Shown here one piece after another: positions 9,945 to 37,442 of a stretch of DNA of 49,478 nucleotides. This stretch comes from Gemmatimonadales bacterium (lineage in GTDB: Bacteria; Gemmatimonadota; Gemmatimonadetes; Gemmatimonadales; GWC2-71-9): positions 1-49,478 of the forward strand of contig JACCRS010000151.1 in assembly GCA_013813435.1 (NCBI GenBank), given 5' to 3'. The stretch's first letter is position 1, and each line of letters begins with the position of its first letter. A program made the position numbers and the translations under genes. Below the pieces are notes generated by a model. The model did not search any database. It was given only the letters and a program-made list of their open reading frames with translations, and was not told where the DNA came from.

Positions 9945-10016
<72 letters not shown>

Positions 10017-10166
10017 CTTGCAAAACCCATCTGCATCCTAGCCAGGCGCTGGATGCCAGGACATTTCGCTGCACCTCGTGCCTGCTTTTGGTTACATTGT
10101 CCCGCCTCTGTCAGCCATTTTTTTCCGCTTCCGCAGCCCTGAGAGCGCCCTGTCGCATGGACAGAC

Positions 10167-11063: not shown

Positions 11064-11292
11064 CCTTTCCGCCCTCCAGTGTTTGGCAGGAAGGCCACGG
11101 CTGGGTTAGGATTCCCGTGGCGCAGGTGCAACGACCCCTCGCCGGCCGGCTTGGGACTTGATTCCAAGCTAAATCATTCAAAGAACTTAGGTCGCTTTAC
11201 TACGCCGCGCCCACGGCCCGGGACGTGCATGGGACGGCCTTCCAAGGCGACCTTGATCCTCTTATCGGCAACCGGAAACCCGGCGCGCCACG

Positions 11293-22672: not shown

Positions 22673-22746
22673 GCCCCCGTAGCTCAGATGGATAGAGCAG
22701 CAGTTTCCTAAACTGTTGGCCGCGTGTTCGAGTCACGCCGGGGGCA
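22673..22746 (+). tRNA. tRNA-Arg (anticodon CCT)
   Basis: 74-nt cloverleaf: acceptor GCCCCCG/CGGGGGC, D-arm GCTC-AGATGGATA-GAGC, anticodon stem GCAGT/ACTGT with loop TTCCTAA, T-arm GCGTG-TTCGAGT-CACGC, discriminator A. Confidence 0.9.
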
Positions 22747-22855
22747 CTCCCGAAGACGTCCGCGACGGCAGTTTCAGTTCAGTATCGCCGTCCGCCGTAT
22801 TATCATAGAACGCTGAAGCAAAGCTTCGAGCGTCCATCAACCTCAGGCAAAGAAC

Positions 22856-23518
22856 GTGATGGCAACAACGGTGGAAGCGACCCGGACCCAGCCAGCTGCC
22901 GCACCAGCCTCTATTCCTTGGCACCACAACCGCCAGCGGTACATTGCTGCCGGCCTGGTCATCCTCGCGCTCAGCGCGCTGGCAGTCTGGTTTGTGGTGG
23001 CGAGCGGAAGGCGCAAGGAGGAGTTCGCGGCGCGCAGTCTCAATCAAGCTCGCGTCGCCGCGGAGGCAGGGAACCTTCCACTGGCTTCGAGTGAGCTGCA
23101 AAAGCTCATCGCTGCCTACAAGGGCACCGACGCGGCAAGCGAAGCGGTCATAACGCTGAACCAGGTGCGTATGATCAATGGGCAGAGTGAGCTCGCGGCG
23201 GTGGGACTTCGGGAGTTCCTCAACGGCAAACCCTCGGAGCAGTACCGAACTCCGGCTTCCGGGTTGTTGGCTGCCGCCCTGGAGAACTCGAAGCGCTGGG
23301 TCGAGGCCGGGAATACCTACACGGAGGCCTCCAACGCGGCCGAGGTGGAGTACCTGAAGGCGAAATACCTGGTGGATGCCGGGAGGGCGTTTCGCCACGG
23401 AGGGAGGGCCGAGGAGGCCGCCCGCGCCTATAGGACATTGCTGGAGAAGTATCCCAAGTCGCCCAGCGTGACCGAAGCCAAGGTGCGCCTGGCCGAGCTT
23501 ACCGATGGAAAGATGTAG
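22856..23518 (+). CDS. membrane-anchored TPR-like protein (YfgM-like architecture)
   Basis: Short N-terminal segment, one TM helix (YIAAGLVILALSALAVWFVV), then a helical TPR-like periplasmic part ending AKVRLAELTDGKM. Family assignment is tentative. Confidence 0.55.
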   Translation: MMATTVEATRTQPAAAPASIPWHHNRQRYIAAGLVILALSALAVWFVVASGRRKEEFAARSLNQARVAAEAGNLPLASSELQKLIAAYKGTDAASEAVITLNQVRMINGQSELAAVGLREFLNGKPSEQYRTPASGLLAAALENSKRWVEAGNTYTEASNAAEVEYLKAKYLVDAGRAFRHGGRAEEAARAYRTLLEKYPKSPSVTEAKVRLAELTDGKM

Positions 23519-23669: not shown

Positions 23670-24485
23670 TCACTTCTCCGCCGCCTTCCCCTCCCACACT
23701 CCACGGAAAAGCAGCCGCCCTTCACCACCCAGCCAAATTTCAGTAGCGCGTGACCCTTCCAGCTCGGCTCTGACGCGCAACTCTGGCCCCCCCCTGCTGC
23801 GGAACGACATCGGAAGAGTGCCCTCCCCGCGGGCCGCTAGTGCCAAAGCCGCTGCTACTGTTCCGGTTCCGCAGGCCAACGTTTCGCCTTCCACACCGCG
23901 TTCGAAGGTTCGGATGAGCCAAGGACCGGGCGGATCAGGCTGAGGGCAGACGAAGTTCACGTTAGCACCGACCGGTCCTGCCCCAGGGTGGGACCGCAGA
24001 AATCGGCCTCGACCCAAGACATCAATGGACTCGATGTCGTCCACCCGGACCACCAGATGAGGCACCCCGACTGCGCCGAGCGATAGCCAGTATTCCCCCG
24101 TACTCGGCTCGAGGCCGGGGGGTTCTCGAGGCAGTTCTACGTCGGGGAGATTGATCTCCGCCAAGTCAGCATGTGCCAGGGAGATTACCCGCACCAGCCC
24201 GGCATCGGTGAGCAAGGAGAACTCGCCCGGTGGTACCATTTCCAGCTCGACCGAAAGCCGCCCGCTACAAAGCGCGGCATTGCCGCACATGGCACCGTGG
24301 GATCCGTCAGAGTTCCAGTACGACATGCGGACGGCTCCGGGCGTCCCTGGCGTGAGGATTACCAGACCATCGGCCCCAATCCCATTGCGGCGGTCGCAGA
24401 TGGCCCGCACCCGGGAAGGAGCCCAACGCTCCGGGGTTGTGGCGCGGCCATCGAGCACCACAAAATCGTTGCCCGAGCCGGTCAT
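23670..24485 (-). CDS. dapF: diaminopimelate epimerase
   Basis: MTGSGNDFVVLDG, catalytic-Cys motifs MCGNAALC and LACGTGTVAAA. ATG 24485 lies downstream of GAGGAA and just after the upstream stop; the longer tracked ORF overlaps the preceding gene. Confidence 0.85.
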   Translation of the reverse strand: MTGSGNDFVVLDGRATTPERWAPSRVRAICDRRNGIGADGLVILTPGTPGAVRMSYWNSDGSHGAMCGNAALCSGRLSVELEMVPPGEFSLLTDAGLVRVISLAHADLAEINLPDVELPREPPGLEPSTGEYWLSLGAVGVPHLVVRVDDIESIDVLGRGRFLRSHPGAGPVGANVNFVCPQPDPPGPWLIRTFERGVEGETLACGTGTVAAALALAARGEGTLPMSFRSRGGPELRVRAELEGSRATEIWLGGEGRLLFRGVWEGKAAEK

Positions 24486-24505
24486 CTTGTAGAACAGGGT
24501 TCCTC

Positions 24506-25249
24506 TCAGATCCGGCCCATGAGGGATTGAAGACGTAGCCACCAGACCATCCAGATGGCCTCCCGCACGATGCGTTTGTTCATCTTGCTCTGCCCCTCGA
24601 CCCGGTCGGTAAACACGATGGGGATCTCCATCAGGCGGTAGCCCTTCTTCCACGCCCGAAAGCTCATCTCGATCTGGAAGGAGTAGCCGTTGGAGCGCAC
24701 CTTCTCGAAATCGATGGCCTCGAGCACCTCCCGACGAAAGCACTTGAAACCGCCGGTCGAATCCTCCAGCGGCAGTCCGGTAATCCAGCGGGCGTACTGA
24801 TTTGCGCCGATCGAGAGCAAGAGCCGGGAGATTGGCCAATTGATCACGTTCACGCCGGTCCGATAGCGGGAGCCGATGACCAGATCGGCATCGTTGGCCG
24901 CGCGCATGAAGTCGCCCAGAAATTTGGGATCGTGCGAAAAGTCCGCATCCATCTCGAAAATGAGGTCGTACCTACGCTCCAGGGCCCAGCGGAACCCAGC
25001 CAGATACGCCTTTCCCAACCCTGACTTCGCGGGACGGTGCAGCACATGCACGCGTTGCGTCGACGCCGCCAGTTCGTCGGCCAGGTGACCAGTGCCGTCC
25101 GGCGAATTGTCGTCCACCACAAGAACTTCCAGCCGGGGGTCCTGTTGCAGGATAGCGGGCACCACGAGCGGAAGGTTGACCCGCTCGTTGTAGGTGGGCA
25201 CTACCACGAGAAGTCGCTCAGCCACGAGGGCGGCGGAGGTACAGGACAC
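24506..25249 (-). CDS. GT2 polyprenol-phosphate mannosyl/glycosyl-transferase (Ppm1/DPM1-like, soluble)
   Basis: LLVVVPTYNERVNLPLVV...VLVVDDNSPDGTG...FEMDADFSHDP, a GT-A DxD fold. No C-terminal TM helices. It overlaps the preceding YfhO-like gene by 32 nt. Confidence 0.8.
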   Translation of the reverse strand: MSCTSAALVAERLLVVVPTYNERVNLPLVVPAILQQDPRLEVLVVDDNSPDGTGHLADELAASTQRVHVLHRPAKSGLGKAYLAGFRWALERRYDLIFEMDADFSHDPKFLGDFMRAANDADLVIGSRYRTGVNVINWPISRLLLSIGANQYARWITGLPLEDSTGGFKCFRREVLEAIDFEKVRSNGYSFQIEMSFRAWKKGYRLMEIPIVFTDRVEGQSKMNKRIVREAIWMVWWLRLQSLMGRI

Positions 25250-27593
25250 CTCCGAGCAGGGTCACCAGGATGACGGCTCCCCAGGTAAGCAGGGTGAGCG
25301 TGGCCGCAAGACGCACGATCGCGGGACGATACCGCATCACCACCCGATGTTCCCCGCTTCGCGTCAGAGGCACTGCCATGAGAGCGTGGTTAGCCCGAAG
25401 CACGGGCGCTGGAACTCCATCTATCTCCGCCTTCCAGGACGGGTGGTAAGAGCGGCTTACGTGCAGCAGTGCCGGGCCGGTGACGCGTACCCGTACGGCT
25501 AGCGTATCGTCACCGTTGCCTTCGATGGTTGCCGTGCCGGTGCCGCCCGCCTGGCCCAGGGCCAGAACGGGCTCTTCCACAATGGTGACCTTGCCAGGAT
25601 CGAAGGTCGGCGACCAGAGACTCGATATCCTGCGTGCCGAATCGGGCTCCACCTGAACTTCGGGTACGACAGCAACGCCTGGCAGCGCCGCGTCGTTGGC
25701 GTACACCGCCACCCGCTCATCCGAGCCCAATAGACGGAACCCCGGAAGCTCCACCTGCCCCGGCAGGAGAACGTAGCGGGCGGCCAGGGCGCGCAATGCG
25801 GCACTGCTGAGAAACCCAACCCAGTACTGCTCTAGCTCGGTGGTGGTGCGGGCAGACTGCCGAGAGGTGTAACGGGTGAGGTCGTTGTACCAACGCAGTT
25901 GGTTGCCATGATAGCCAAACACCTCGGGAACTCCGTAGCTCGCCAGAAATCCTTCGGGGTAGACGCCACCCACGCTGAGCACACGCTCTCCTGGAACCAG
26001 GCGGGCTCGCAGTGCCTCTATTCCTTGATCCTGAGGGAAGAACTCTTCGTAGCGGACAATCTGAATGTAGCGGTGGTCGACCCGCATCAGGTCCAGCGCG
26101 GTGAGCACCGTGAAGATGATGACGACGTGTGTCGTCCGGAGCGTACCGCGGCCCCAGAGATACACGGCGGCCCAGGCCGCCGCGCAGATCAGTGCCACGA
26201 TCAGGGCACCCGCAGCCAGCCTCGGAACGTTGGCGGCGAACGCAACCGCCCTGTCACCCCCATCGGCACCGCCGAAGATGGAGCTCCAGATCGCATAGAG
26301 GCCTGTGCCGGAGGCCAACGTCAACACCGCGATCAGCAAAGCGGTCCCCGCACCAGTGGCGAGACCGGCTGACATGGCGCGGCGGGCCCGGATATCGCCC
26401 TCGGCCAGGGCTCGCTCAATCAGCAGGGCCGCGAGGAGGGTCAAGGCAACGATGGCCAGATATGTGGCCAAGCTCGGCGCCCGGAAATTCTTGAGGCCAG
26501 GCACGACCGAGTAAAGCAGTCGGAACGCGGGTGTGCCCGAGCCGAGGGCGTACAGCAGTGCCACCGCGGCGAGCGTGGCCAGGCCCCAGCGTCTTCGATC
26601 TCCTTTCAGCCCAGCCAACGCGGCAACGCCCAACACCAGCACCAGCGCGCCCCCGTACTCGGAGTTGTGCTTGAACGGGTTCTTCCCCCAATACGTCTGC
26701 GATTGCACGTCGGTTCCGGAAAACTCAGGGACGAACAGGGATACCGCCTCCTCCGCATGCAGCGACCAGCTGGCCGAGTACTCGAACCCACGTCCTGGGC
26801 CGGCCCGGGGAGAGTCTTCTCGGAGATATCGATACATCGGCAGCAGCACTACCGCTGCAATGCCTGCGGCCGTTACTACAGCGACCATGCCACCGGCGAG
26901 CCCGTGGGCCAGAAAAGCACCTCCCTGGCGTCGTCCATTCCATAGCGTAGCCAGGGCGTAAACCGCCAGCGTGATATAGGCGTAATACGCGAGCTGTGGA
27001 TGAGCCACCACCATCAGCCCCGCAACCACCCCGAGCCAGAGAAACCGCACCCAGGAATGACGTCCCAGCGCTGTCACCAGCAGCCAGAGTGCGGCCGGAA
27101 ACAAGGCGGTGACGTACATCTTGCCGTCCTGCCCGCCCCAAACAAGGCTCACTAGATTGGCGGAGAGCAGATACGCCGAGCCGGCGAAGAGCGCCACCAT
27201 GCGTCTGGTACCGAAAGCGCGAGCGGCGAGGTACATGAATACCCCGGCGAGGTAGACGTGCAGAATCAGCTTCCACGCCAGGGCAGCGGTCAGGGGCAGC
27301 AGGAAGTGCAGTATCGAAGCCGGATAAAGAATGTCGCCGCTGCCGGCTTCGACGGTGGGCACTCCGCCGAAGAGGTACGGATTCCAGAGCGGCAGACGGC
27401 CAAGTGCGCGGATGTGCTCGACGAAGAACTTGCGGAACATGACGCCGGCCGCGATGGTGTCCTGACCCAGGAGCATCGTGCCCTCACCGCTCACGAGGTA
27501 CTCGCGAAACAAGATCAGGGTAAGGGCACCCATTACCACAAACGGAACCCATCGAGGGATCTGGTCCAGCTCGGACGGCTGCGGCTGCTCCAC
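25218..27593 (-). CDS. YfhO-like polytopic membrane protein (GT-C-type glycosyltransferase candidate)
   Basis: 791 aa. The N-terminal two thirds are multi-TM (LWNPYLFGGVPTVEAGSGDILYP near the first loop), followed by a soluble C-terminal domain and a final TM. GTG 27593 directly abuts the upstream TGA. Family call by architecture/motif only. Confidence 0.5.
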   Translation of the reverse strand: MEQPQPSELDQIPRWVPFVVMGALTLILFREYLVSGEGTMLLGQDTIAAGVMFRKFFVEHIRALGRLPLWNPYLFGGVPTVEAGSGDILYPASILHFLLPLTAALAWKLILHVYLAGVFMYLAARAFGTRRMVALFAGSAYLLSANLVSLVWGGQDGKMYVTALFPAALWLLVTALGRHSWVRFLWLGVVAGLMVVAHPQLAYYAYITLAVYALATLWNGRRQGGAFLAHGLAGGMVAVVTAAGIAAVVLLPMYRYLREDSPRAGPGRGFEYSASWSLHAEEAVSLFVPEFSGTDVQSQTYWGKNPFKHNSEYGGALVLVLGVAALAGLKGDRRRWGLATLAAVALLYALGSGTPAFRLLYSVVPGLKNFRAPSLATYLAIVALTLLAALLIERALAEGDIRARRAMSAGLATGAGTALLIAVLTLASGTGLYAIWSSIFGGADGGDRAVAFAANVPRLAAGALIVALICAAAWAAVYLWGRGTLRTTHVVIIFTVLTALDLMRVDHRYIQIVRYEEFFPQDQGIEALRARLVPGERVLSVGGVYPEGFLASYGVPEVFGYHGNQLRWYNDLTRYTSRQSARTTTELEQYWVGFLSSAALRALAARYVLLPGQVELPGFRLLGSDERVAVYANDAALPGVAVVPEVQVEPDSARRISSLWSPTFDPGKVTIVEEPVLALGQAGGTGTATIEGNGDDTLAVRVRVTGPALLHVSRSYHPSWKAEIDGVPAPVLRANHALMAVPLTRSGEHRVVMRYRPAIVRLAATLTLLTWGAVILVTLLGGVLYLRRPRG

Positions 27594-28532
27594 TCAGGCC
27601 TCTCGAACCGAGGGGGGGTTCGGCGCGTCACGCCGAAACAGAAGGGGGATGGCGGGTAGCACTTCGGTTGCGGTGAGCAGGAGCCGGCTTGCGATCGCCA
27701 GCGCGGCTGCTGGTTTGAGTCCTATATCACCGGCAAGCAGAAGGAGAAAGACCGATTCCCTGGGGCCGAGACCGCCCGGCGCGAACAAGGCAAGAAAGCC
27801 TGCGAGGTACGAGCAGGTGAACACTCCCACCGCCTGAGGCAGATTCAGGGCAACACCGGGCAGCAGTCCGCGGGCGAGCAGCAGCAGCGCCAACCCATAC
27901 CCGCACCATGCTATTACATTGGCGACAAACGCTACCGCTACCATGGTGGGAGCGATGGCGCGGAGGGTGGGCCACGAGCTCGGAAGCAGGCGTCCGATGC
28001 GGTCGAGCGCCGGCTGTGAGGTGAGGGTCGCAACGCCGAGAAGGGACAGGACAATAACCACCCCCGCGATGGGCTCGGCCCCCTGCCCCACTGTCTGAAA
28101 GGCGTCGCGCGCGGTCAGGGAGATAACTGCGGCACCGCTTGCGAGGGCCAGTACCTGAAGTACTAACGCGCCTGCCACGGCCACCGCTGGATCGACCCCG
28201 GAACGCTGGGCTAGCACCGCGGCACCGGCGACAGCCCACACTTTTCCCGGCACGTACTTGCCCAGGCTGGCCAGAAACCAGATGCGCGTCGCCGTCATGA
28301 AGGGGAGCGGCTCTCCCATGCTGAGCACCACCCGGCGCCACGCCTCGATCAGCATCGCATAGCTGGCGAAGACCACGAGCACGCTGGCGGCTATCCATTG
28401 GGGCGAGAGTTGCCATTCGATCGGCTGCGCCCGCAGGCTCTGCCAATTGAGGGCCAAAGACCGGACGGCGACCCCCACAAGCAGCGCACCCGCGACGAAC
28501 TGAAAGGCGCGCCAGATTCTACGCTGCACCAT
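27594..28532 (-). CDS. UPF0104 / lysyl-PG-synthase (MprF) transmembrane-domain-type flippase-like protein
   Basis: Polytopic, with the family-typical LGKYVPGKVW and FAPGGLGPRESVFLLLL motifs. ATG 28532 (MVQRRIW) is preferred over 28580. Confidence 0.65.
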   Translation of the reverse strand: MVQRRIWRAFQFVAGALLVGVAVRSLALNWQSLRAQPIEWQLSPQWIAASVLVVFASYAMLIEAWRRVVLSMGEPLPFMTATRIWFLASLGKYVPGKVWAVAGAAVLAQRSGVDPAVAVAGALVLQVLALASGAAVISLTARDAFQTVGQGAEPIAGVVIVLSLLGVATLTSQPALDRIGRLLPSSWPTLRAIAPTMVAVAFVANVIAWCGYGLALLLLARGLLPGVALNLPQAVGVFTCSYLAGFLALFAPGGLGPRESVFLLLLAGDIGLKPAAALAIASRLLLTATEVLPAIPLLFRRDAPNPPSVREA

Positions 28533-29982
28533 TGGACCGATCCCGGTGCGCCTGCGCTGGTACTGCGTTGCCTGATGCATCTTCTATGGCGGAGGGGTGG
28601 TCGCCGGGCAAGGCCGTCAGCAGAACTTGCCCGTCGGCCGTGACTCTCGCGGCCCGCACCGAGCGGCGAAACCGGCGCCATTCGACCACCTTTTTTGCCG
28701 AAGCAAAATATGGCCGGTCGTGCGCCAGCGTCTCCAGCAGGGACACAAAGGCGGGCTCCGCCCCGGGGAATCCCAGCGCCTCTGTAAGGTTAGGATGCCA
28801 CAGGCCCACCCAGGCACCCTCCACCGCCCTGCACTGGCGCGAGAGCTCGATTCCATCCTGCACCCAAAGGGGGGCCTCCTCTATCCCGGCATATTTACTC
28901 AGGGCACGGTCCATCCACACCAGGGGCAGGAGGTCGAGCGGCAGTATGACCTGGCGCGCTGCGTCCCACGCGGGCACCACATCGGCTACCCCCAAGCGGA
29001 AACCGTTTCGATCAGGGAACCCATAGGTGGCATCGTAATCGAAGCCCGCCTCGACCATGGCGCGCTGGGTGGAGCCAGGGCGCATCCGAAGAAAATGCTG
29101 CCGCACACCTTCGATTGGCTTCTCCACCAGGCGGCCGAGCCAGCGGCGTTGAGACGCCATGCGCACAGCATCTCCTCCGGTTTCGAAGCTGCCGTGGAGG
29201 CCGATCTCGTGGCCCGCGCGGGTCACCGCCGAGAGTATCCGGTGAGTCGCGGGCGCATCGGGATGGTAGGTGCAGTCTCCGGACACCATGGATCGGAGCG
29301 AGGGCTGGGCGCATATGACAAACCAGGTGGCGGGGATCCCATGGTGGGCTTCGATCTGAAGCACGCCGTTAACACCTTTGCTGATCGGATCGCGGCCGAT
29401 GCTGCGGCGGGCCGCCCGTGCTACGCGAGCACTGAGCCGCCAAGCTCCCTTCCTTCCGAGCTCCGCCATGCGGAGCAGCGGCAGGAAGCCCCACCACTCC
29501 ACCACATCGAGATCGTGCGTGATTACCACCGCCCACCGGCGGTTGTCGGGCCATGGCACCAACAGTCGCACCGGCCGCCGCCCGGCAACCGCGACCGCCG
29601 CACGGCGCAACTCCGCCGCGAGCACCGAAACCAGCGGTTCGCGGCTCCGGCCCGCCGCTACGAGCGGATTTTCCCCTGCCGGCACCCGGCCATGCCGGTC
29701 GGCGGCCAGGGACCGCTGCTCGACGGCGCCACCCGCAACTTCGGCAACCGCGGCTAACGCAGCGATGGTAATACCTACCTCTCCACTTGCGCGATGAAGC
29801 GCTGCACCCGGCGCCAGATCAGCCACCGGACTGCCGGATGAAGCATGTTCCAGCACGGTGATGCGGACCACGTCGACTTCGGCTTGCTCCGCAACCAGCA
29901 GGCGCGAGAGATCGATCAGAACATCGAGACCGAATCGCTCTGCGGGCTCCAGTCGGTTTCCCGGCACCTCTATCCGGATCAT
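28519..29982 (-). CDS. CE4-like polysaccharide deacetylase family protein with ~150-aa unknown N-terminal region
   Basis: VVITHDLDVV (TxDxD-type motif 1) and HEIGLHGSFE (His-His motif 2). ATG 29982 forms an ATGA overlap with the upstream LbH gene stop. Confidence 0.6.
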   Translation of the reverse strand: MIRIEVPGNRLEPAERFGLDVLIDLSRLLVAEQAEVDVVRITVLEHASSGSPVADLAPGAALHRASGEVGITIAALAAVAEVAGGAVEQRSLAADRHGRVPAGENPLVAAGRSREPLVSVLAAELRRAAVAVAGRRPVRLLVPWPDNRRWAVVITHDLDVVEWWGFLPLLRMAELGRKGAWRLSARVARAARRSIGRDPISKGVNGVLQIEAHHGIPATWFVICAQPSLRSMVSGDCTYHPDAPATHRILSAVTRAGHEIGLHGSFETGGDAVRMASQRRWLGRLVEKPIEGVRQHFLRMRPGSTQRAMVEAGFDYDATYGFPDRNGFRLGVADVVPAWDAARQVILPLDLLPLVWMDRALSKYAGIEEAPLWVQDGIELSRQCRAVEGAWVGLWHPNLTEALGFPGAEPAFVSLLETLAHDRPYFASAKKVVEWRRFRRSVRAARVTADGQVLLTALPGDHPSAIEDASGNAVPAQAHRDRSNGAA

Positions 29983-30443
29983 GGCCACCCCGCATCGGGC
30001 ACGAGCTCACGAACCGTCCGGGCGGGTTGTCCTGCTACGACATGGAGCGAGGGCACGTCGGAAAGCACCACGCTGTTGGCTCCTATCACCGCCCCTCGCC
30101 CGATGCGAACTCCGGGCAGCACCACACAGCCGGAGCCGAGCCACGCGTCATCTTCGATTACGATAGGTCCACGCGAGAGAGGTGCAAAACCGCGGATGCG
30201 AGAGTGGTTCGGGTGGGAGGAGGTTACCAGGGTGACGCGCGGAGCGATGCTTACCCGGTTACCGATGGTGATATTCCCCCGCTCTTCCAGCTCTTCTACG
30301 ATGAGCAGGTCGTCCGCTATGTAGACCTCACGTCCGATCGTGAAGCCACACGACCGGAGCAAGCTTACGCGCCAGGCCGGGAAGAAAGCGTTCCGAGCCC
30401 AGCGCTTCAAGAGTTTCTTTCGAAGGCGCCACGCGAAGCTCAC
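29979..30443 (-). CDS. left-handed beta-helix (hexapeptide-repeat) acyl/acetyltransferase
   Basis: ITIGNRVSIAPRVTLV...IVIEDDAWLGSGCVVLPGVRIGRGAVIGANSVV, hexapeptide repeats as in WcaF/LacA-type O-acetyltransferases. Confidence 0.8.
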   Translation of the reverse strand: MSFAWRLRKKLLKRWARNAFFPAWRVSLLRSCGFTIGREVYIADDLLIVEELEERGNITIGNRVSIAPRVTLVTSSHPNHSRIRGFAPLSRGPIVIEDDAWLGSGCVVLPGVRIGRGAVIGANSVVLSDVPSLHVVAGQPARTVRELVPDAGWP

Positions 30444-30446
30444 GAG

Positions 30447-31490
30447 TTATCCCAGGTAGCGGTAGAGGCCCGAGCCAAGACGCGCGACGCTGGCCGGCAG
30501 GTGGGACCAGAGCGCGGCGGCCGTGGCCATCGGGCCGCGGTTACGCGGAGCGAGGTTCAGACCAGCGGGCGCGGGCCAGTAATCATAGGCCAGCGGTAAG
30601 GCCTGTCCACCCCAGCGCCGCTTGAACTCGACGAGGCCTTCCTGCTCTGGCGCCGCGCGACCCATGTCGAAGCGGCAGCCGGCCGCGATAGCATCCTGGA
30701 TTGCAGCCCATAGCAAGAGGTGGTTTGGCCGATGCTCGAGCTGCGCCGGATCGGAAGCGCCAAAGGCGTAGATCCATGACCGGGCACCTTTCCAGGTGGT
30801 AATGGCGGCCGCTGGAGCCCCGCTGCTCGGGAGCGCGAGATATAAGTCGGCCAGGCCCGCTGCCTGCAGCCGGCGGCACCCCTCGATGAAAAACCGCCGC
30901 GGCGGCGCCGGCAGGCCGTGCCCGTGCGCGGTGCGCTCCTCCAGCTCGGCCATGATGAGCCAATCGCTGGTAGACTCTCCGCGGCGAATTACAAGACCGG
31001 ATTTCCGGCCTTTCTTGATGCTGCGCTGGGTGCTGCCGGCATGCAGCTGCCGCCAGACGAAAGGTTCCCCGCCGTCGGTTGGAATTTCATAGGTTGCATA
31101 ACGAGAGGCGCGCTGAAATTCCGGAGCGGGCGGGTATTCCCCTCTGGATTTAAGCTCGACCCGGGAGACACCGCGCTCTCGGGCCCGGTCCACCACCGCT
31201 TGGGACAGGGCGGCAGCGGTGGCAGCATCGTTAGCCAGTGGACCGGATGCATAGCTGAATGGCAGGCTGACGAACCTTCGGGGTCCAATCAGCGGCGGGA
31301 TTTCGGCTACCGCGAGGATACCGCACAGTCCGCCGCCTGTGGTCGCCGAGTAGTAATCGAGCCGGAGCCGGTAAATGTCGGCCAGGCATTGGGCCCATTC
31401 CGGGCGATGATAGAACGTGCCATGCGCTACGGCAAAGGCACGCCAGTCCTCCGGCGGTTCAACGCCGCGGCTTATGGTCAGCGACGGCAT
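30447..31490 (-). CDS. FemAB-like tandem-GNAT acyl/aminoacyl-transferase
   Basis: 347 aa. FYHRPEWAQCL near the N-terminus and LVEFKRRWGG near the C-terminus (FemAB-family FKxxFG-like motif). Confidence 0.6.
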   Translation of the reverse strand: MPSLTISRGVEPPEDWRAFAVAHGTFYHRPEWAQCLADIYRLRLDYYSATTGGGLCGILAVAEIPPLIGPRRFVSLPFSYASGPLANDAATAAALSQAVVDRARERGVSRVELKSRGEYPPAPEFQRASRYATYEIPTDGGEPFVWRQLHAGSTQRSIKKGRKSGLVIRRGESTSDWLIMAELEERTAHGHGLPAPPRRFFIEGCRRLQAAGLADLYLALPSSGAPAAAITTWKGARSWIYAFGASDPAQLEHRPNHLLLWAAIQDAIAAGCRFDMGRAAPEQEGLVEFKRRWGGQALPLAYDYWPAPAGLNLAPRNRGPMATAAALWSHLPASVARLGSGLYRYLG

Positions 31491-32667
31491 CGTACACTTC
31501 CAGGAAGCTGGCTATGGCGGCATCGGGGGAATAGGTGCGGAGGGCATGCTCCCGCCCTTCCAGCGCCAGCCGTTCGCGGAGAGAAACGTCGGTGAGCAGA
31601 CGCTGGATCTGGTCTGCGAGGTCATCCGGATCGCCGTCTCGGGCAATGAGTCCGGTTCGCTCATGGATCACGACCTCTGGTATGCCGCCCGCGGCGGTTC
31701 CCACGACCGCCGCGCCCGCCAGAATAGCCTCCACCAGGGTCAGGCCGAGCCCTTCGGCGTTACCGCGGCTGGGCAAGACGGTGACCATACTCGCGCCGTA
31801 TTCCGCGGCCATTCGAGGCTGGGAAACGAACGGCGCCCAGGTGACACGGCTGGAGATACCGAGCGAACGCGCCAGGACTTCGAGCTTCGATCTGAGCGGA
31901 CCCTCGCCCAGGATCTTGAGCTCGCAGGCTACGCCTCTGCGCCCGAGCTCCGCCGTCGCTCTGAGCAGTACATCCACTCCCTTGCTCGGCACCAGGTTGC
32001 CGGCGTAGAGGATGCGAGGCGGTTGCTGCTTTGGTGTTCGGGCACCCTGACTGAACGCCGCAACGTCCAATGGCATCGGCATTACCTGGATCTCGGTACC
32101 GAGGGCGGGTAGCAGCCTGCGAAGGTCGTCCGCCAGAAATTTCGAGACCGTAGTAATTCGAGCTGCGCGCCGGAATGCGGGCAGGGCAATCCTTCGCATG
32201 AGACTCGACCGCTCCAGCAAGCGGACGTCCGAGCCGTGACAGGTTATAAGGTACGGTGCCGGCTCACGACTGACGAACCATCCCGCCGGCAGCCACCAGT
32301 GGGCATGAACCACGTCAGGCGCGAACCGGAGCGTCGCGGTGTGGACCGCGCGAGCGAAGGCCAGGAGAAAACCCGGGAAGGCGAGCGCGGCCAAGGGAGA
32401 GCGTAATGTCCTACCGTGGAGGTTGCCGGTATATGCAACCCGCTCAAGCGCTTCAGGACCGTACCGGAAGCGGCGGATCCGAAGTCCCGCAACCTGCTCT
32501 TCCCCAGCAGTACCCGGCGCATGGGGCGCGATGACCTCGAGCTGATGTCCCCGGGCTGCCGCGCCCTGTGCCAGCCGGGCCACGAAGGCGCCGGCAGGGT
32601 CGCCGGAAAAGCGGGGGTAGTTGTGGGTAACCGTCAGGATACGGAGGCGCTTACCTGGCGAGGGCAT
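31459..32667 (-). CDS. glycosyltransferase family 4 (GT-B)
   Basis: RILTVTHNYPRFSGDPAGAFV N-terminus, and a C-terminal EGLGLTLVEAILAGAAVVGTAAGGIPEVV (E-x7-E region). ATG 32667 preferred. Confidence 0.8.
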   Translation of the reverse strand: MPSPGKRLRILTVTHNYPRFSGDPAGAFVARLAQGAAARGHQLEVIAPHAPGTAGEEQVAGLRIRRFRYGPEALERVAYTGNLHGRTLRSPLAALAFPGFLLAFARAVHTATLRFAPDVVHAHWWLPAGWFVSREPAPYLITCHGSDVRLLERSSLMRRIALPAFRRAARITTVSKFLADDLRRLLPALGTEIQVMPMPLDVAAFSQGARTPKQQPPRILYAGNLVPSKGVDVLLRATAELGRRGVACELKILGEGPLRSKLEVLARSLGISSRVTWAPFVSQPRMAAEYGASMVTVLPSRGNAEGLGLTLVEAILAGAAVVGTAAGGIPEVVIHERTGLIARDGDPDDLADQIQRLLTDVSLRERLALEGREHALRTYSPDAAIASFLEVYDAVADHKPRR

Positions 32668-33787
32668 TTCGATACCATCCCTCGCACAGCCCGGCGACAT
32701 GGTCCGGTGCCAGGCGTGCGCGCCAGGACTCGCCGACGAGGCGCCCCATGGCCAGACGATCGGGGTCGCCCTGGAGGTCCAGCACGCTGTCAGCCAGTGC
32801 CTCGGGCGATGGCAGGGTAAGCCGGCCCGGGCCTGACTCCGGCACGATACTCACCGCGGCGCCGCTGTCCCAGCTTGCCACTACCGGCACGCCACAGGCT
32901 AGCGCCTCTATGGTGGCAAGTGCTACACCATCTTCCCGGGCGGTAAAGAGCATGACATCGGCGCGCTCGAGATATGTTCGCGCCTCCGCTCCTGAGGTGG
33001 CCCCCACAAATCGAACCAGCGATGAGATCCCCAGGCGCGACGCACGCTGCTCCAGAGCTCCACGCTCGGGTCCATCTCCGACGATGGTGAGGGGAAAGCC
33101 GTGGCCGCTGGAAGCGAGTAGTGCCACCGTATCGAGCGCCAGATCGACCCGCTTCGATGGTGCCAGCCGGGAGATGACTACCGCACCGCCGCCACCTCGG
33201 GTCCAGGGATACCCGCGGGTGTCGGCCGGCATCGGGTGAATGTACGGAGTGTCCACGAAGCGGCCCACCGCAGCCTGAACCCAGTTGCCCACCTCCCTCG
33301 AAACCGCAGTGACGATAGACGCCCGCTGGAGCAGGGGACGTGCGAGCGATCGGGCAACGCGTGACCGTTGAAGCAGGGAGCCGTCGGCTCCGTAAACCGT
33401 TACCACCAAGGGAACGCCGGAGGGAGCTGCCAGTCCGGCCGGCAGCCAGGAGTGCGCGTGCAGAACGTCGGCGCCGGCCGCGATCTCATCTCGGAGCACC
33501 GCCCTCATCGCACGCCGGAGCCGGCGGAGCGCCAGCCACCCGACGGGACTTCTCAGGGCTGCGGCAACTTTATGATCGCTCGAGAGCCGGTCGCGAACCG
33601 ATCTGCCGACGCGAACTCTTGCAACCGGAACTCCGTCCACCTCGATCTCGCCGCCCTCACCGCTCGGAGTAACAACGCGAACCGAGATCCCGCGGCGTTT
33701 GAGGGCTGACGCAAGCGTGCTGAGCGGGGCGCCGGAGAGATCGCCAGGCCTGCGGAGGTAATCGTGGGTCAGGAGGACGACCCGCAC
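32651..33787 (-). CDS. glycosyltransferase family 4 (GT-B), paralogue of the next gene
   Basis: VRVVLLTHDYLRRPGDLSGAP N-terminus, DGVALATIEALACGVPVVASWDSGA C-terminal motif. Confidence 0.8.
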   Translation of the reverse strand: MRVVLLTHDYLRRPGDLSGAPLSTLASALKRRGISVRVVTPSGEGGEIEVDGVPVARVRVGRSVRDRLSSDHKVAAALRSPVGWLALRRLRRAMRAVLRDEIAAGADVLHAHSWLPAGLAAPSGVPLVVTVYGADGSLLQRSRVARSLARPLLQRASIVTAVSREVGNWVQAAVGRFVDTPYIHPMPADTRGYPWTRGGGGAVVISRLAPSKRVDLALDTVALLASSGHGFPLTIVGDGPERGALEQRASRLGISSLVRFVGATSGAEARTYLERADVMLFTAREDGVALATIEALACGVPVVASWDSGAAVSIVPESGPGRLTLPSPEALADSVLDLQGDPDRLAMGRLVGESWRARLAPDHVAGLCEGWYRNALAR

Positions 33788-33790
33788 CGG

Positions 33791-34747
33791 TCAATCCCGG
33801 ACGTCGGGCTTCTCGAGCCGCGCGAGACCTCGGCCGATCTCCCGGGTTTCCTCGCGCATTCCGGCGATTATCTCACCCAGAAAGCCGAATCCGAAGAGGA
33901 CTATGCCGCTGATAACCATCATCTCAACGAGATTGAGGAGCGGCCGGAGACCAATACCGTAGGCAAAGCGGAGGACCAGCGCAGCGATCCCGGCCAGAAA
34001 GCCGATGACGAAGACGATGGCGCCACCGACCCCGAAGAAAAGCATCGGCTTCCGCCCGAACCGCAGCTGGAACCAGACCGATATCAGGTCAAAGAGTCCA
34101 ACGGGTATCCGCCTCCAGTTGAACTTGGAGATTCCCGCCCTGCGGGGGTAGAGCGGAACCGGCAGCGAGGTGAGCCGGTAACCGTCGGCGGCGGCTATGA
34201 CCACCATGTAGCGATGCCAATCGGGCCGGAGCGGCACGCCCAGCATTACCTCGCGCCGGTAGGCCTTGACTGAATTAAGATCGGTTACCCGGACCCCAAA
34301 GAGCCATCGACAAAGGCTGTTGTAGATCCGGGAGACGAAAGCCTTCTCGTATCTGCCCTGTTTGGTTCCGGTGACGATATCGGCACGGCCGTCCAGAATC
34401 GGCGCCACCAGGCCGGGGATGTCCTCGGGCAGGTACTGCAGATCAGCCGGATAGAAGACAAAGACGTCGCCCCTAGCAACTTCACCCGCGGATCTGAGGC
34501 TATCCGCGATTCCACGCTGCCGGCGATGATTGATTACTCGGAGAAAAGAGTATCGCAGCTCCAGCTCCCGAAGCACCCCATCGCTGCCGTCGCGAGAGCC
34601 ATCGTTGACGATGATCACCTCGAATGAGAAGCCAGCGGGCGCAAGCGCCGCCTCGCAGCGCTGCAAGAGCTCGGGAAGGTTTGCCGCCTCGTCCTTAGCC
34701 GGGACGAGCACGCTCACATCCAGCGTCTCGACCGGAACGATGGTCAT
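33791..34747 (-). CDS. GT2 polyprenyl-phosphate glycosyltransferase (ArnC/GtrB-like, two C-terminal TM helices)
   Basis: VSVLVPAKDEAANL...EVIIVNDGSRDGS...FYPADLQY, a GT-A core followed by two hydrophobic helices (MLFFGVGGAIVFVIGFLAGIAALVL; MMVISGIVLFGFGFLGEIIAG). The ATG overlaps the rpoN TGA (ATGA). Confidence 0.75.
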   Translation of the reverse strand: MTIVPVETLDVSVLVPAKDEAANLPELLQRCEAALAPAGFSFEVIIVNDGSRDGSDGVLRELELRYSFLRVINHRRQRGIADSLRSAGEVARGDVFVFYPADLQYLPEDIPGLVAPILDGRADIVTGTKQGRYEKAFVSRIYNSLCRWLFGVRVTDLNSVKAYRREVMLGVPLRPDWHRYMVVIAAADGYRLTSLPVPLYPRRAGISKFNWRRIPVGLFDLISVWFQLRFGRKPMLFFGVGGAIVFVIGFLAGIAALVLRFAYGIGLRPLLNLVEMMVISGIVLFGFGFLGEIIAGMREETREIGRGLARLEKPDVRD

Positions 34748-36285
34748 ACCCGCTTCCGCATGCGCGCCGGAAGGATGCCCAGCTGATCGCGGTACTTGGC
34801 GACCGTACGGCGGGCGATCTGGATTCCCTGCTCCTGAAAGAGATGAACAATCTGCTGGTCGGTGAGCGGCTTGGCGCTGTTCTCCTCGCCCACCATTTTC
34901 TCCAGCTTGGCGCGGATGGAGCGGGCGCTCGCATCTTCCCCCGATGCGGTGGAGAGCGCGCTGGAAAAGAAGAACTTGAGCGGGAGAACACCGCGAGGGG
35001 TCTGCACGAACTTCTCGTTCGTCACCCGGCTCACGGTGGACTCATGCATGTTGATGACCTCCGCGACTTCGCGGAGGGTAAGAGGCTTTAGATACTCGAT
35101 GCCCTTTTCAAAGAAGTCGCGTTGCCGATCGACGATGAAATTCATGACCTTGAGCATGGTCTGGCGGCGCTGCTCGATGGCCTGGATCATCCAGTTGGCG
35201 CTGTTCATCTTCGAGGCGATGAACTCGCGGTTCTCGGGCGTCATCTTTTTCTTGTCGCGCGCGATCTCCTGATAGGAACGGCTCAACCGCAGCCGAGGCA
35301 TGCCTGTGTCGTTGAGAAATACATGATAGCGAGTCCCGATCTTATCAACGATGAGATCCGGAATGATGTAGCCATCGCTCTGCTGCGAATACTTGAGACC
35401 GGGCTTGGGGTCAAGCCGGGAGAGCTGATCGGCTGCGGTCTGTACCGCGCCAGGTTCGACCCCGAACCGCTTGGCAAGGTCGTTCCATCGATGGGCGATC
35501 AGATCGGGAAATGCCTCGGCTACGAGGCGATAGGTTAGAGACGAGGTGTCCGCCAGCTCCACCAGCTGAATCAGGAGGCACTCGCGCAAGTCCCGGGCAC
35601 CAGTGCCCGAGGGATCCAGGCGCTGGATGACCGTGAGCATCTCCTCGGCTTCCTGAAGGGTGTAAAAGGGGGGAGAGGACGAAGAGGACGGAGCAGATGC
35701 GTTGGCTGAGCCGCCGGCTGCCGACGGGATCTCGAAAGTCTCAAGCCCTCCATCTTCTCCGCCATCTCCGTCTTCTCCGCTAACTCTTACGTGCCCCGAG
35801 AGGAGCAGATTCACCGAGTTGAGAATGTCCTCGAGCGGCGCCGCGAGGTATCCCTCCTCGTTGACATTGCCCAGGAACTCCTCGGCGAGCAGCAGTTGGC
35901 GCGGCGTTAAGACGAGCATCTGGAGCTGGTCCCGCAGATGATCGATGAGGTTGCGGGACTCGACCGTGACGGGCTCGGTGTACTCCAGCTGCTCGTATTG
36001 CTCCCGAGTGCCGCCCACCTCGAAGCCGTTAAGAAGTATCTCCTCCCAGTCCACCTCGTCCTGCTTGTCTTTCTGCTCCTTCTCCTCTTTAGCGGTTGCC
36101 GGTTCCGGCTGCGCCTCCTCTTCCGGCTCCAACAGCTCGAGGAACGGATTGGCCAGCAGTTCCTGCTTCAGGTGTTGCTGGAGGTCCATCATAGGCATGT
36201 ACAGCATGTCCATGGCCTGATAGAGCCGGGGATTGACCCTCAGCTCCTGGCGCATGCTGGTATGCTGTGACAGGCCGGTTCTCAT
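34744..36285 (-). CDS. rpoN: RNA polymerase sigma-54 factor
   Basis: N-terminal Gln/Leu-rich region I, acidic region II, C-terminal HTH and RpoN box ARRTVAKYR. Confidence 0.9.
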
Positions 36286-37442
36286 GCAGCCGCCTCGAGT
36301 CGGGCGCGGAGACGCGCCGTGAGCGTCGGCCCCAGGTAAAGCTGGGCAACCCGGTCGTCGTAGACCAGATCACGCACGGTGCCTGCGGCCTGAACTTTTC
36401 CTTCGAAGATGATGTAGGCCCGATCTACGATGTCGAGAGTCTGCTCCACGTTGTGATCCGTAATCAGCACGCCGATGCCACGATGCCTCAAGCCGGCGAC
36501 GATGGTTTGGATGTCGTGCACAGCGATCGGATCGACGCCGGCAAATGGCTCGTCCAGCAACATGAACTTGGGGTCCGACACCAGGGCCCGGGTTATCTCG
36601 AGCCGCCGCCGCTCGCCGCCACTCAGGGTATATGCCTTGCTTTTGCGGAGATGCTTGATCGAGAGCTCGTCCAGCATGCGGTCCAGACGGCTATAGCGTT
36701 CGTCCCGGCTCAGCCCCCGCGTCTCCAGAATGGCTAAAATGTTCTCCTCGACTGTCATCTTGCGGAAGACCGAGGGCTCCTGGGCCAGGTAGCCGATGCC
36801 ATTTCGGGCCCGTTGGTACATCGGCGCGTCGGTAAGCTCAACTCCATCCAGCCGCACGCGGCCCTGGTCGGGGCGGATAAGTCCCGTAATAAGGTAGAAG
36901 GTCGTTGTCTTTCCCGCGCCATTTGGTCCCAAAAGGCCGACGATCTCACCTTGCTCCACCCGCACAGTCACGTCGTCTACCACCCGCCGACCCTTGAAGC
37001 TCTTGCTCAGGTCGAGTCCTTCCAGCAGGCTGGTCTGGGCGCCATTTCTGGGATAGGTCTTGGCCCGCCGCACGGCACGCCGGGCCGAGCCGAGCAACGC
37101 CTCGTAAACCGTTTGCCGCTCTTCCACCGTTGGGCCCCACCACGCCACCCGCGGCCGCACCGTCTGCCAGTAGCCTGCGCTGGTATCGAGAATCCAACCC
37201 TCGGTTGCCAGCCGTGGCAGCACGGAACCATTCAGGTGGTGCCGCACCTCATCGCCGGAGACTTCCTGGTCCGCATCTCCGGTGGGCTGGTAGCAGGCCA
37301 GGTAAGCCTCGCGGTAGCTGTGCACCAGGTCGGCGAACGCGATGGTTTCAGTCGGGCCCACGGCCTGGACAATCGCTGCCAGTCCAATCGGCACCGAGGG
37401 ATCGCGATCGCCGAGCGCGGCGACCCACTCTGGCGCGGTCAT
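36282..37442 (-). CDS. lptB: LPS export ABC transporter ATP-binding protein LptB with a ~135-aa N-terminal extension of unknown function
   Basis: Walker [10 protein letters not shown] at residues 172-180 (residues 36-44 in E. coli LptB), [11 protein letters not shown] signature, [11 protein letters not shown] Walker B, C-terminal LYLGPT. The ATG overlaps the lptA-like stop (ATGA). Confidence 0.8.

Follow-up and report, generated by a model that had tools for sequence, protein, structure and literature searches.

Nine genes on the minus strand of a contig from a Gemmatimonadales bacterium (GenBank assembly GCA_013813435.1, contig JACCRS010000151.1) are made up of two modules, a core of five genes that is conserved across two phyla and an insert of four genes, here called the cassette. 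The whole stretch analysed, 49,478 nucleotides with a G+C content of approximately 62% and assigned by its homologues, too, to the Gemmatimonadales (phylum Gemmatimonadota), is referred to as the window, and the genes, G1 to G9 in the direction of transcription, lie at 24506-34747 between rpoN and dapF. The core consists of G1, G2, G7, G8, and G9, and encodes putative glycosyltransferases and a flippase-like membrane protein. The cassette consists of G3 to G6, and its products resemble the Vim proteins of Porphyromonas gingivalis. The Gemmatimonadota abound in soil, and the chemistry of their envelope has hardly been studied. A first-pass annotation, made from the letters alone, had seen in the nine genes a single system for the decoration of lipid A or another envelope glycolipid, with the logic of the aminoarabinose (Arn) pathway. 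Is this the logic of the cluster? Or, has a cassette with its own history been inserted into a glycosylation system that also occurs without it?

The nine-gene cluster

All nine open reading frames (ORFs) are co-directional and closely packed (Table 1). The first-pass annotation had described their number, strand, and position between rpoN and dapF, and the ORFs and their junctions bear this out, including the ATGA overlap of rpoN and G1. Its nine family calls are likewise upheld by profile searches, hydropathy, or predicted fold. Among the nine genes the longest overlap is 62 nt and the widest gap 3 nt. In a regulatory-site scan, promoter- and terminator-like sites inside the cluster region did not exceed their frequency in shuffled sequence, and the sigma-54 promoter consensus had no match near the cluster. 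With junctions of -62 to +3 nt and sites no commoner than in shuffled sequence, co-transcription of the nine genes is plausible.

Table 1. Features of the cluster, its flanks, and the rest of the window. The junction is that with the gene before it in the direction of transcription, in nucleotides (negative, overlap). Abbreviations: GT, glycosyltransferase family; TM, transmembrane; CE4, carbohydrate esterase family 4; LbH, left-handed beta-helix; DPM, dolichyl-phosphate mannose synthase.
Feature	Position	Strand	Junction	Assignment	Evidence
kdsB-pyrG-kdsA-kdsC-lptC-(476-aa ORF)-lptB-rpoN	upstream of G1	-			profile searches
rpoN	34744..36285	-		sigma-54	TIGR02395 2.5e-124, above cut-off
G1	33791..34747	-	-4 (ATGA)	GT2 with two C-terminal TM helices, putative polyprenyl-phosphate sugar synthase, ArnC/GtrB/AglJ type	Pfam Glycos_transf_2 6.7e-22
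G2	32651..33787	-	+3	GT4 glycosyltransferase	Pfam GT4 families
G3	31459..32700 (alternative start 32667)	-	-17 or -50	GT4 glycosyltransferase in VimF position	Pfam Glycos_transf_1 9.6e-35
G4	30447..31490	-	-32	FemAB-family (VimA-like) putative acyl/aminoacyl transferase	Pfam Acetyltransf_6 7.1e-13
G5	29979..30443	-	+3	small LbH acetyltransferase, LacA/WcaF type, 154 aa	Pfam Hexapep 7.4e-15
G6	28519..29988	-	-4 or -10	VimE-like divergent CE4 putative de-N-acetylase, lineage-specific N-terminal domain	AlphaFold2 fold and NCBIfam VimE
G7	27594..28532	-	-14 (ATG at 28532) or -62	MprF-TM/UPF0104 (PplT) flippase-like membrane protein	Pfam LPG_synthase_TM 2.3e-9, 37.6 bits against a cut-off of 33.4
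G8	25218..27593	-	0	YfhO/DUF6541-type putative GT-C glycosyltransferase	Pfam YfhO 1.8e-11, DUF6541 5.4e-8, both above cut-off
G9	24506..25249	-	-8 or -32	small soluble GT2, putative polyprenyl-phosphate hexose synthase, DPM/Ppm1/PpgS type	Pfam Glycos_transf_2 3.8e-31
dapF	23670..24542	-	-37 (GTG at 24542, 290 aa as in homologues) or +20	dapF, kept after the G9 homologue in relatives	Pfam DAP_epimerase 2.8e-33
~360-aa acyltransferase of relatives	L038:8761-9897, L033:8794-9873, L044:7927-8997	-		hexapeptide-repeat acyltransferase
lptB	36282-37442	-		LptB, 386 aa
476-aa ORF	37439-38869	-		expected LptA place (family 'lptAx')	no Pfam match
bshC homologue	530-2242	+		bacillithiol biosynthesis
murJ	2570-4099	+		MurJ lipid II flippase
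tRNA-Gly(CCC)	9945-10017	+
sulfotransferase	10167-11063	+		followed by an 816-aa protein (region 10167-13743)
tRNA-Arg(CCT)	22673-22747	+
TPR/YfiO(BamD)-like protein	22856-23518	+		family 'c8'
antisense ORF	28597-29757	+		386 aa, antisense to G6
tyrosine recombinase	48368-49288	-		XerC/XerD type	Phage_integrase and N-terminal SAM-like domain

Two modules in the comparison of related loci

Approximately 170 related loci (L numbers), in two sets, were compared. The first set came from a genome scan with G6 and comprises 80 loci, all from Gemmatimonadota. Its genes were called by family hidden Markov models (HMMs) on six-frame ORFs; gene calling based on G+C at third codon positions (GC3) had lost real genes, and was replaced by length-greedy ORFs and then by these HMMs. 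For the second set, metagenomes were scanned with a YfhO alignment whose first sequence was a protein from the candidate division Zixibacteria. Both sets are biased by their selection, the first on CE4 and the second on similarity to the Zixibacteria YfhO, and the frequencies are not population estimates. Counts for the first set refer to the 48 loci in which rpoN and dapF are both present. Homologues of the window's genes are called here GT2tm (G1), GT4 (G2 and G3), Fem (G4), LbH (G5), CE4 (G6), Mprf (G7), YfhO (G8), and GT2s (G9).

In 46 of the 48 loci, GT2tm, GT4, CE4, Mprf, YfhO, and GT2s all lie between rpoN and dapF, an arrangement that is not due to chance. GT2tm, CE4, YfhO, and GT2s are each present in 48/48, GT4 and Mprf each in 47/48, and two GT4 genes are present in 15/48. 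Fem and the small LbH are each found in 26/48 and always together (26/26), neither occurring without the other (0/48). Many relatives in this set have the order CE4-GT4-Mprf. A check of gene order in relatives had been proposed with the first-pass annotation; in these CE4-selected loci six families are kept between rpoN and dapF, and over both sets G3 to G6 are optional. Lineages that have neither Fem nor the small LbH carry an LbH acyltransferase of approximately 360 aa beside CE4 on the opposite strand (Table 1), a hint that these lineages re-acylate the same amine in another way. That there are two modules was first apparent from L049, L055, L060, and L075, where rpoN-GT2tm-Mprf-YfhO-GT2s-dapF is contiguous and GT4-Fem-LbH-CE4 adjoins it on the opposite strand.

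The second set contains 39 loci with both GT2tm and YfhO. GT4 is present in 31 of these, Mprf in 32, and GT2s in 34, and CE4 with Fem in only two. In L151, L147, L166, L169, and L114 the genes rpoN-GT2tm-GT4-Mprf-YfhO-GT2s-dapF are contiguous, with no room for another gene, and the Zixibacteria-like loci L091, L092, L095, and L134 also contain the core only. The window has a close relative in L114 (identities of 90% for G1, 77% for G8, 92% for G9, and 85% for rpoN), which has a single GT4 and none of G3 to G6. Its GT4 is 59% identical to G2, which is probably the core GT4 of the window's clade; G2 and G3 share 31% identity. Even in the distant loci L091, L095, L102, L147, and L151, which include Zixibacteria-like ones, G9 is 64-69% and G1 42-59% identical. 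The cassette, for its part, stands alone in L088, beside GT2 and PMT_2 genes in L082, on the opposite strand in the four loci already named, and inside the core in L084 and L090, where Fem-LbH-CE4 is inserted between GT2tm and GT4. Because there are core-only loci, including so close a relative as L114, and because the cassette is found alone, inverted, or inserted elsewhere, the nine genes are a five-gene core with a four-gene insert.

Two modules might also be two unrelated systems that happen to be neighbors, the cassette feeding some other polysaccharide and the core working alone. The solitary cassette of L088, its occurrence in polysaccharide loci of the Wzy or Wzz type (L081, L086), and the absence of the cassette from most loci of the second set would all fit. 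We consider this very unlikely, as the cassette lies nested between the GT2tm and Mprf genes of the core in two phyla, immediately adjoins the core even when inverted, and overlaps with it at the junctions in the window; in L084 and L090, moreover, the only GT4 of the core directly follows CE4.

Products of the core genes

In a sequence search of the PDB, G1 aligns over its full length with the solved structures of ArnC (9bhc, 1.4e-24 over residues 10-302) and GtrB (5ekp, 5e-19), and hydropathy places TM helices at residues 240-258 and 276-294, as expected from the ArnC/GtrB architecture that had been assigned to it. Its matches to the NCBIfam models ArnC (4.2e-25) and AglJ (7e-19) are both far below cut-off, with 88 bits against 529 for ArnC. 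G9, of 247 aa and without a TM helix by hydropathy, aligns with the catalytic domain of the DPM synthase of Pyrococcus (5mlz, 5.6e-30) and matches AglJ and PpgS below cut-off. Both G1 and G9 match the AglJ and PgfS models.

The above-threshold match of G7 to LPG_synthase_TM (PF03706) confirms its earlier identification as a flippase-like protein with the TM region of MprF. Unlike MprF, it has this domain only, with no lysyl-phosphatidylglycerol synthase domain (DUF2156). It is 312 aa long from the ATG at 28532, or up to 328 aa as the ORF reaches 28580, and has approximately eight hydrophobic TM helices by hydropathy and the motif PGGLGPRE. The PDB sequence search gave no match for G7. GpgF and HexF, for which a flipping role has been proposed, belong to the same family (PMC12713373, PMC10128005).

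G8 has at least 11 TM helices in its TM profile, followed by a large periplasmic domain at approximately 480-765 and a closing TM helix. In the PDB sequence search it had chance-level matches only (E = 1). Its AlphaFold2 model is weak (pLDDT 62.7), and the best Foldseek match of this model is ArnT (5f15, 2.8e-4), followed by AftD, EmbA/B/C, AftA, AglB, and PglB, all of them GT-C enzymes; with such a model the fold match is suggestive only. Two acidic residues, D45 of the first periplasmic loop and D156, do not vary across 12 divergent orthologues. Among NCBIfam models it matches PgfM1 and PgfM2 weakly (E ~1e-3), at the C-terminal end only.

These products would also suit protein glycosylation of the archaeal Agl or the Pgf kind, in which G1 would prime polyprenyl phosphate, the GT4s extend it (with the Vim-type sugar where there is a cassette), and G7 flip the lipid-linked glycan, and G8 would transfer this glycan or G9-derived sugars to periplasmic or surface proteins. 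The matches to AglJ, PgfS, and, weakly, PgfM1 and PgfM2 point this way, and UPF0104 proteins recur in archaea with an AglD-like GT2 and a PMT/STT3-like GT-C (PMC5898192). Streptococcal enzymes of the GtrB/YfhO type are reported to O-glycosylate proteins (PMC11092751). Possible acceptors are at hand in 16 of the 48 loci of the first set, in which one to four YncE-like beta-propeller or Big_2 proteins per locus are encoded between GT2tm and CE4 (e.g. L072:4008-8131; L002:6287-7333). Many of these have lipoprotein-type signal peptides, and in others the N-terminal domain is conserved and looks cytoplasmic (MPPLxL...); they may be glycosylation substrates or unrelated cargo. There is no propeller gene within the cluster of the window or in the loci of the second set, the PgfM matches are confined to the C-terminal end, and transfer of a glycan en bloc is not known for YfhO enzymes. 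Protein glycosylation of this kind is, in our estimate, quite unlikely to be what the cluster does.

Products of the cassette genes

G6 has no Pfam match, PF01522 included, and no match to ArnD among the NCBIfam models or to TIGR03006. Its sole NCBIfam match is VimE (1.5e-20), at the level of the family and not of the equivalog, with 73 bits against a cut-off of 440. The AlphaFold2 model (pLDDT 79.7, pTM 0.86) has the CE4 fold, as its Foldseek matches are 3rxz (the best, at 3e-11), 3s6o, 1z7a, PuuE, and chitin deacetylases. Invariant across 12 distant homologues are H158, D159, and D161, E261 and H265, R296 and H298, and H398, which make up a divergent CE4 active site. The CE4-like call made from two short motifs is thus correct as to fold; of the second motif, HEIGLHG, E261 and H265 are family-wide and H260 is not conserved. 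The ORF antisense to G6 listed in Table 1 is of a kind typical of high-G+C DNA, in which shadow ORFs are long; in the related loci such ORFs led simple ORF calling astray.

G4 matches TIGR03019, the model that VimA matches, over residues 16-346 (6.6e-31; 107.6 bits against a cut-off of 260), and its PDB sequence search gave chance-level matches only (E = 0.024). G5 matches, below cut-off, the NCBIfam models for galactoside O-acetyltransferase (1.4e-23) and the WcaF family (1.7e-22). It is 53% identical in L082 and 59% in L084 to the gene between Fem and CE4. G3 has sub-cut-off matches to EpsE, BshA, MshA, and N-acetylglucosaminyl-phosphatidylglycerol synthase, and is 32-33% identical to the GT4 downstream of CE4 in the same two loci.

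Beyond the Gemmatimonadota, a full-library profile search with the G6 family (7190 representative clusters) separated the Gemmatimonadota orthologues, with at least 390 bits, from a next tier with at most 215 bits. In six of the nine second-tier relatives with retrieved context, a DUF7033 N-terminal domain replaces that of the Gemmatimonadota, and 10 of the 10 tested match VimE only, below cut-off. Their surroundings are varied. Fem-LbH-CE4-GT4 forms the whole of the solitary cassette in L088 and is accompanied by methyltransferases as well as GT2 and PMT_2 in L082; Fem-CE4-GT4 x3 occurs with a Wzy_C protein in L081; and in L086 and L089 the neighbors of CE4 are a DegT aminotransferase, a sugar 3-dehydrogenase, and an N-acetyltransferase of the LbH kind, with an AsnB-like amidotransferase as well in L086. 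The most informative is L084, from the candidate division Zixibacteria, which has eight genes in the order of the window. Their identities to the window are 50% for GT2tm (G1), 32% for Fem, 59% for LbH, 28% for CE4, 33% for GT4 (G3), 28% for Mprf, 37% for YfhO, and 68% for GT2s (G9). Upstream of this module (L084:1076-4095) are three genes homologous to UDP-GlcNAc 3-dehydrogenase, NeuD/PglB-type N-acetyltransferase, and DegT aminotransferase, a trio whose products would together lead to a 2,3-diacetamido sugar, and after them a second GT2/PMT_2 pair. Downstream are accA and mreCD, and there is no adjacency to lpt, rpoN, or kds.

These observations bear on the possibility of Arn-like decoration of lipid A or lipopolysaccharide (LPS). 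In such a pathway G1 would make a polyprenyl-phosphate-linked N-acetylhexosamine (HexNAc), G6 would deacetylate it on the carrier, G4 and G5 would re-acylate it, G7 would flip it, and G8 would transfer it, as a single modified sugar, to lipid A or the LPS core. ArnD belongs to the CE4 fold family, as G6 does by its model, and the full-length match of G1 to ArnC structures and the best fold match of G8, to ArnT, point in the same direction. So does the position of the module, which follows lptC-lptA-lptB-rpoN in most Gemmatimonadota-like loci, and the Vim product of P. gingivalis ends on LPS (PMC13086638). G6, though, matches VimE and not ArnD and has no PF01522 domain, and CE4 travels with GT4, Fem, and LbH and not with G1. 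It is present in only 2/39 of the GT2tm and YfhO loci of the second set and missing from L114; no ArnA- or ArnB-like or DegT-type gene was found among the window ORFs scanned. As many relatives carry the core without CE4, FemAB-like, and small LbH genes, the order GT2, CE4, flippase, GT-C that had been read as the logic of the cluster is not the conserved one. The inference of a lipid A/LPS acceptor from gene position is weak in view of L084, whose same eight genes lie between amino-sugar/PMT_2 genes and accA/mreCD. Since the Zixibacteria module is not beside lpt or rpoN, LPS is not established as the acceptor; by analogy with anionic LPS (A-LPS) it is possible, and the evidence for it here is synteny. 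With CE4 an accessory and the core GT4 left without a role, the Arn-like route fits less well than a route through a glycolipid, and we regard it as unlikely.

A proposed pathway

The reading that we favor, tentatively and at a little below an even chance, is a composite glycoconjugate pathway in which an amino-sugar glycolipid or lipid-linked glycan would be made in the cytoplasm, have its N-acyl group exchanged there, be flipped, and be extended by a GT-C enzyme. On the cytoplasmic face the two GT2 enzymes of the core, G1 and G9, would load sugars onto polyprenyl phosphate, and a GT4 would make the acceptor or primer. The cassette would act on the same side: G6 would strip the N-acetyl group from an amino sugar, G4 would add an amino acid to the freed amine, G5 would acetylate the aminoacylated product, and G3 would install the tailored sugar. 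The strict co-occurrence of Fem and the small LbH suggests that G5 caps the new aminoacyl residue. G7 would then flip the lipid-linked intermediate, and G8 would transfer sugar to it from polyprenyl-phosphate donors on the periplasmic side. In the route we favor, the GT4s would thus build a HexNAc glycolipid on the inner leaflet, the N-acyl swap and flipping by G7 would follow, and G8 would extend it with the sugars of G1 and G9. Each pairing in this route has a precedent that has been studied experimentally. The analysis itself shows the gene content, the families and folds, the modular build, and the conservation in two phyla; we infer every substrate, in which order the steps occur, which way G7 flips, and what the acceptor is in the end.

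Several points weigh against this pathway. The roles of all nine proteins are read from distant family membership, and every equivalog-level NCBIfam match is far below cut-off. UPF0104 domains are also fused to AglD-type dolichyl-phosphate-sugar synthases in archaea (PMC5898192), and G7 could therefore flip a polyprenyl-phosphate sugar instead of a glycerolipid. Two polyprenyl-phosphate sugar synthases for one GT-C are left without explanation. The G8 model is of low confidence, with its first periplasmic loop unresolved, and the selection of both comparative sets, on CE4 and on similarity to the Zixibacteria YfhO, is a bias here as well. The window and the 80 Gemmatimonadota loci contain neither the diamino-sugar genes (WbpA/B/E/D) that adjoin the cassette elsewhere nor, by tblastn with a DegT protein, a DegT aminotransferase, and a Vim-type substrate is not established here.

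What might the product be for? [quoted passage not shown] The position of the module beside LPS-transport genes in all 48 loci of the CE4-selected first set that span rpoN and dapF, together with the 64-69% identity of G9 in distant loci, points to a basic component of the envelope and not to a strain-specific antigen. One testable idea is that surface diversity may arise as close relatives gain or lose the cassette. Two more are that the MprF-like (UPF0104) flippase family partners GT-C enzymes in diderms, and that the Vim-type swap of acetyl for amino acid is a portable cassette for various glycan pathways well outside the Bacteroidota. The value of the cluster is as a clear genetic target and not as a new principle.

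Neighboring genes and other features of the window

Upstream of the cluster the earlier gene assignments are correct for kdsB-pyrG-kdsA-kdsC-lptC, lptB, and rpoN; the place given to lptA holds the 476-aa ORF without a Pfam match, which keeps its position between lptC and lptB across related loci. The ABC domain of LptB begins only at residue 156. Its N-terminal extension of approximately 150 aa is within the family HMM coverage in most Gemmatimonadota loci and missing in lower-GC relatives such as L102 and L135 (HMM coverage 0.65). Weak 'lptB' matches beside the module in L103, L105, and L111 were discarded as generic ABC ATPases (88-143 bits against 468-690 for true LptB). At the other end, the TPR/YfiO-like gene is convergent with dapF and keeps its position in most related loci.

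As had been noted before, Wzx, Wzy, Wzz, and WaaL are absent from the window ORFs scanned, and MurJ is the sole protein of the multidrug/oligosaccharidyl-lipid/polysaccharide (MOP) family in the window. T9SS, exosortase, and rhombosortase genes did not turn up among the window ORFs scanned either. The window contains a bshC homologue with no clear bshA or bshB. A bacillithiol link between this gene and the GT4/deacetylase pair was dropped, as G3 scores far below the cut-off for BshA and the pair is surrounded by genes for membrane glycosylation. A reading as a defense system was also dropped, as the 'GT4-conflict' Pfam matches underlie stronger generic GT4 matches. The 816-aa protein encoded after the sulfotransferase has Big_1, kelch, glyoxal-oxidase, and GO-like E-set domains and may be a secreted carbohydrate-oxidizing protein. 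A tyrosine recombinase is encoded near the end of the window, and an Rfam scan of the window found no family at threshold beyond the two tRNAs.

Comparison with known systems

The composite pathway is not described in the literature searched, and searches on the envelope lipids of Gemmatimonas and on T9SS in Gemmatimonadota or Zixibacteria gave nothing relevant. The statement that no characterized pathway has this composition is accordingly true of the whole and not of its pieces, which have counterparts in CsbB/YfhO, Wbp/Vim, and GpgSDF/HexSDF.

In outline the Arn pathway and the cluster have the same sequence of parts: a GT2 polyprenyl-phosphate-sugar synthase, a deacylase that works ahead of the transfer step, a flippase, and a GT-C transferase. 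It has glucosamine (GlcN) and galactosamine (GalN) analogues in LgmABC of Bordetella and FlmF2/NaxD/FlmK of Francisella. The cluster differs in having no orthologue of ArnC, ArnD, ArnE/F, or ArnT and no small membrane protein like ArnE/F; by Pfam G8 is YfhO and not PMT_2/ArnT, CE4 is accessory in the cluster, and the core contains a GT4.

Closest to the core are the three-component glycosylation systems GtrA/GtrB/GtrC and CsbB-GtcA-YfhO of Bacillus and Listeria (PMC5836110, PMC8035078, PMC11127046), which have in common with it a GT2 with C-terminal TM helices (G1), a polytopic YfhO-family GT-C (G8), and a dedicated flippase candidate in one cluster. A GT2-TM enzyme with YfhO is reported to glycosylate teichoic acids (PMC5836110, PMC8035078). 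Here the flippase candidate is of the MprF-TM/UPF0104 family, with no GtrA/GtcA-like ORF in the cluster; a conserved GT4 and another GT2, soluble and DPM-like, are present in addition; and the host, a diderm, has no teichoic acids.

The cassette has its counterpart in the Wbp/Vim system of P. gingivalis and Tannerella forsythia. The vimA-vimE-vimF operon of P. gingivalis completes a linking sugar. The proposed role of the CE4 protein VimE is removal of the 2-N-acetyl group, VimA adds Ser or Gly, and VimF is a glycosyltransferase proposed to transfer sugar (PMC7468200, PMC13086638). A TIGR03019-like FemAB enzyme, a VimE-like CE4, and a GT4 are adjacent in both, as G3 to G6 are in the window. 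The operon corresponds to the order Fem-(LbH)-CE4-GT4 in L082, L084, and L088, VimE-like genes adjoin the trio of 3-dehydrogenase, aminotransferase, and N-acetyltransferase in L084, L086, and L089, and the proposed logic of 2-N-acetyl removal, amino acid addition, and sugar transfer would be the same. The differences are the low scores of G6 against VimE and of G4 against TIGR03019, the extra small LbH acetyltransferase that always accompanies Fem here, and the lack of Wbp genes near the cluster in Gemmatimonadota. That other bacteria have vimA/vimE homologues beside Wbp genes and in PEP-CTERM loci had already been noted in the Vim studies (PMC7468200, PMC13086638). From the exopolysaccharide loci with PEP-CTERM and exosortase the cluster differs in a G4 below the TIGR03019 cut-off, a G6 without TIGR03006, and the absence of exosortase among the window ORFs scanned.

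The combination of a glycosyltransferase, a de-N-acetylase, and a stand-alone UPF0104/MprF-like flippase, here G7 with the neighboring GT4 and CE4, is also that of two systems that make amino-sugar membrane glycolipids. In Pseudomonas aeruginosa, gpgSDF encodes a GT4, a deacetylase, and a UPF0104 protein for GlcN-phosphatidylglycerol (PMC12713373), and in Clostridioides difficile hexSDF encodes a polysaccharide deacetylase and an MprF-like protein along with a synthase for aminohexosyl-hexosyl-diradylglycerol (PMC10128005). GpgD is COG3233 whereas G6 is VimE-like, and G3 scores 49.9 bits against the GpgS (NF053787) cut-off of 480. The amine here is probably re-acylated instead of free, and a GT-C and two polyprenyl-phosphate-sugar synthases are added.

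A similar scheme at the level of superfamilies is found in the phosphatidylinositol mannosides (PIM) and lipomannan of mycobacteria, with the GT4s PimA and PimB', the acyltransferase PatA, Ppm1, and the GT-C PimE. In that pathway, as in the route proposed above, cytoplasmic GT4s build a glycolipid that is acylated, flipped, and extended by a GT-C with polyprenyl-phosphate sugar from a small soluble GT2; the cluster belongs to another phylum and has no inositol-lipid genes. UPF0104 has been predicted to be a general flippase family with two archaeal contexts, one with GT2 and GT-C and one with a deacetylase and a glycosyltransferase (Makarova et al. 2015, PMC5898192; compare a preprint on PplT). 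These two contexts, AglD-like GT2/UPF0104/PMT-STT3-like GT-C and deacetylase/glycosyltransferase/UPF0104, are merged in the cluster; those described are archaeal, predicted only, and without FemAB-like or LbH genes. The cluster is not categorically new, and brings familiar parts, three-component glycosylation, a UPF0104 flippase, and a portable Vim-type cassette, into a fresh combination.

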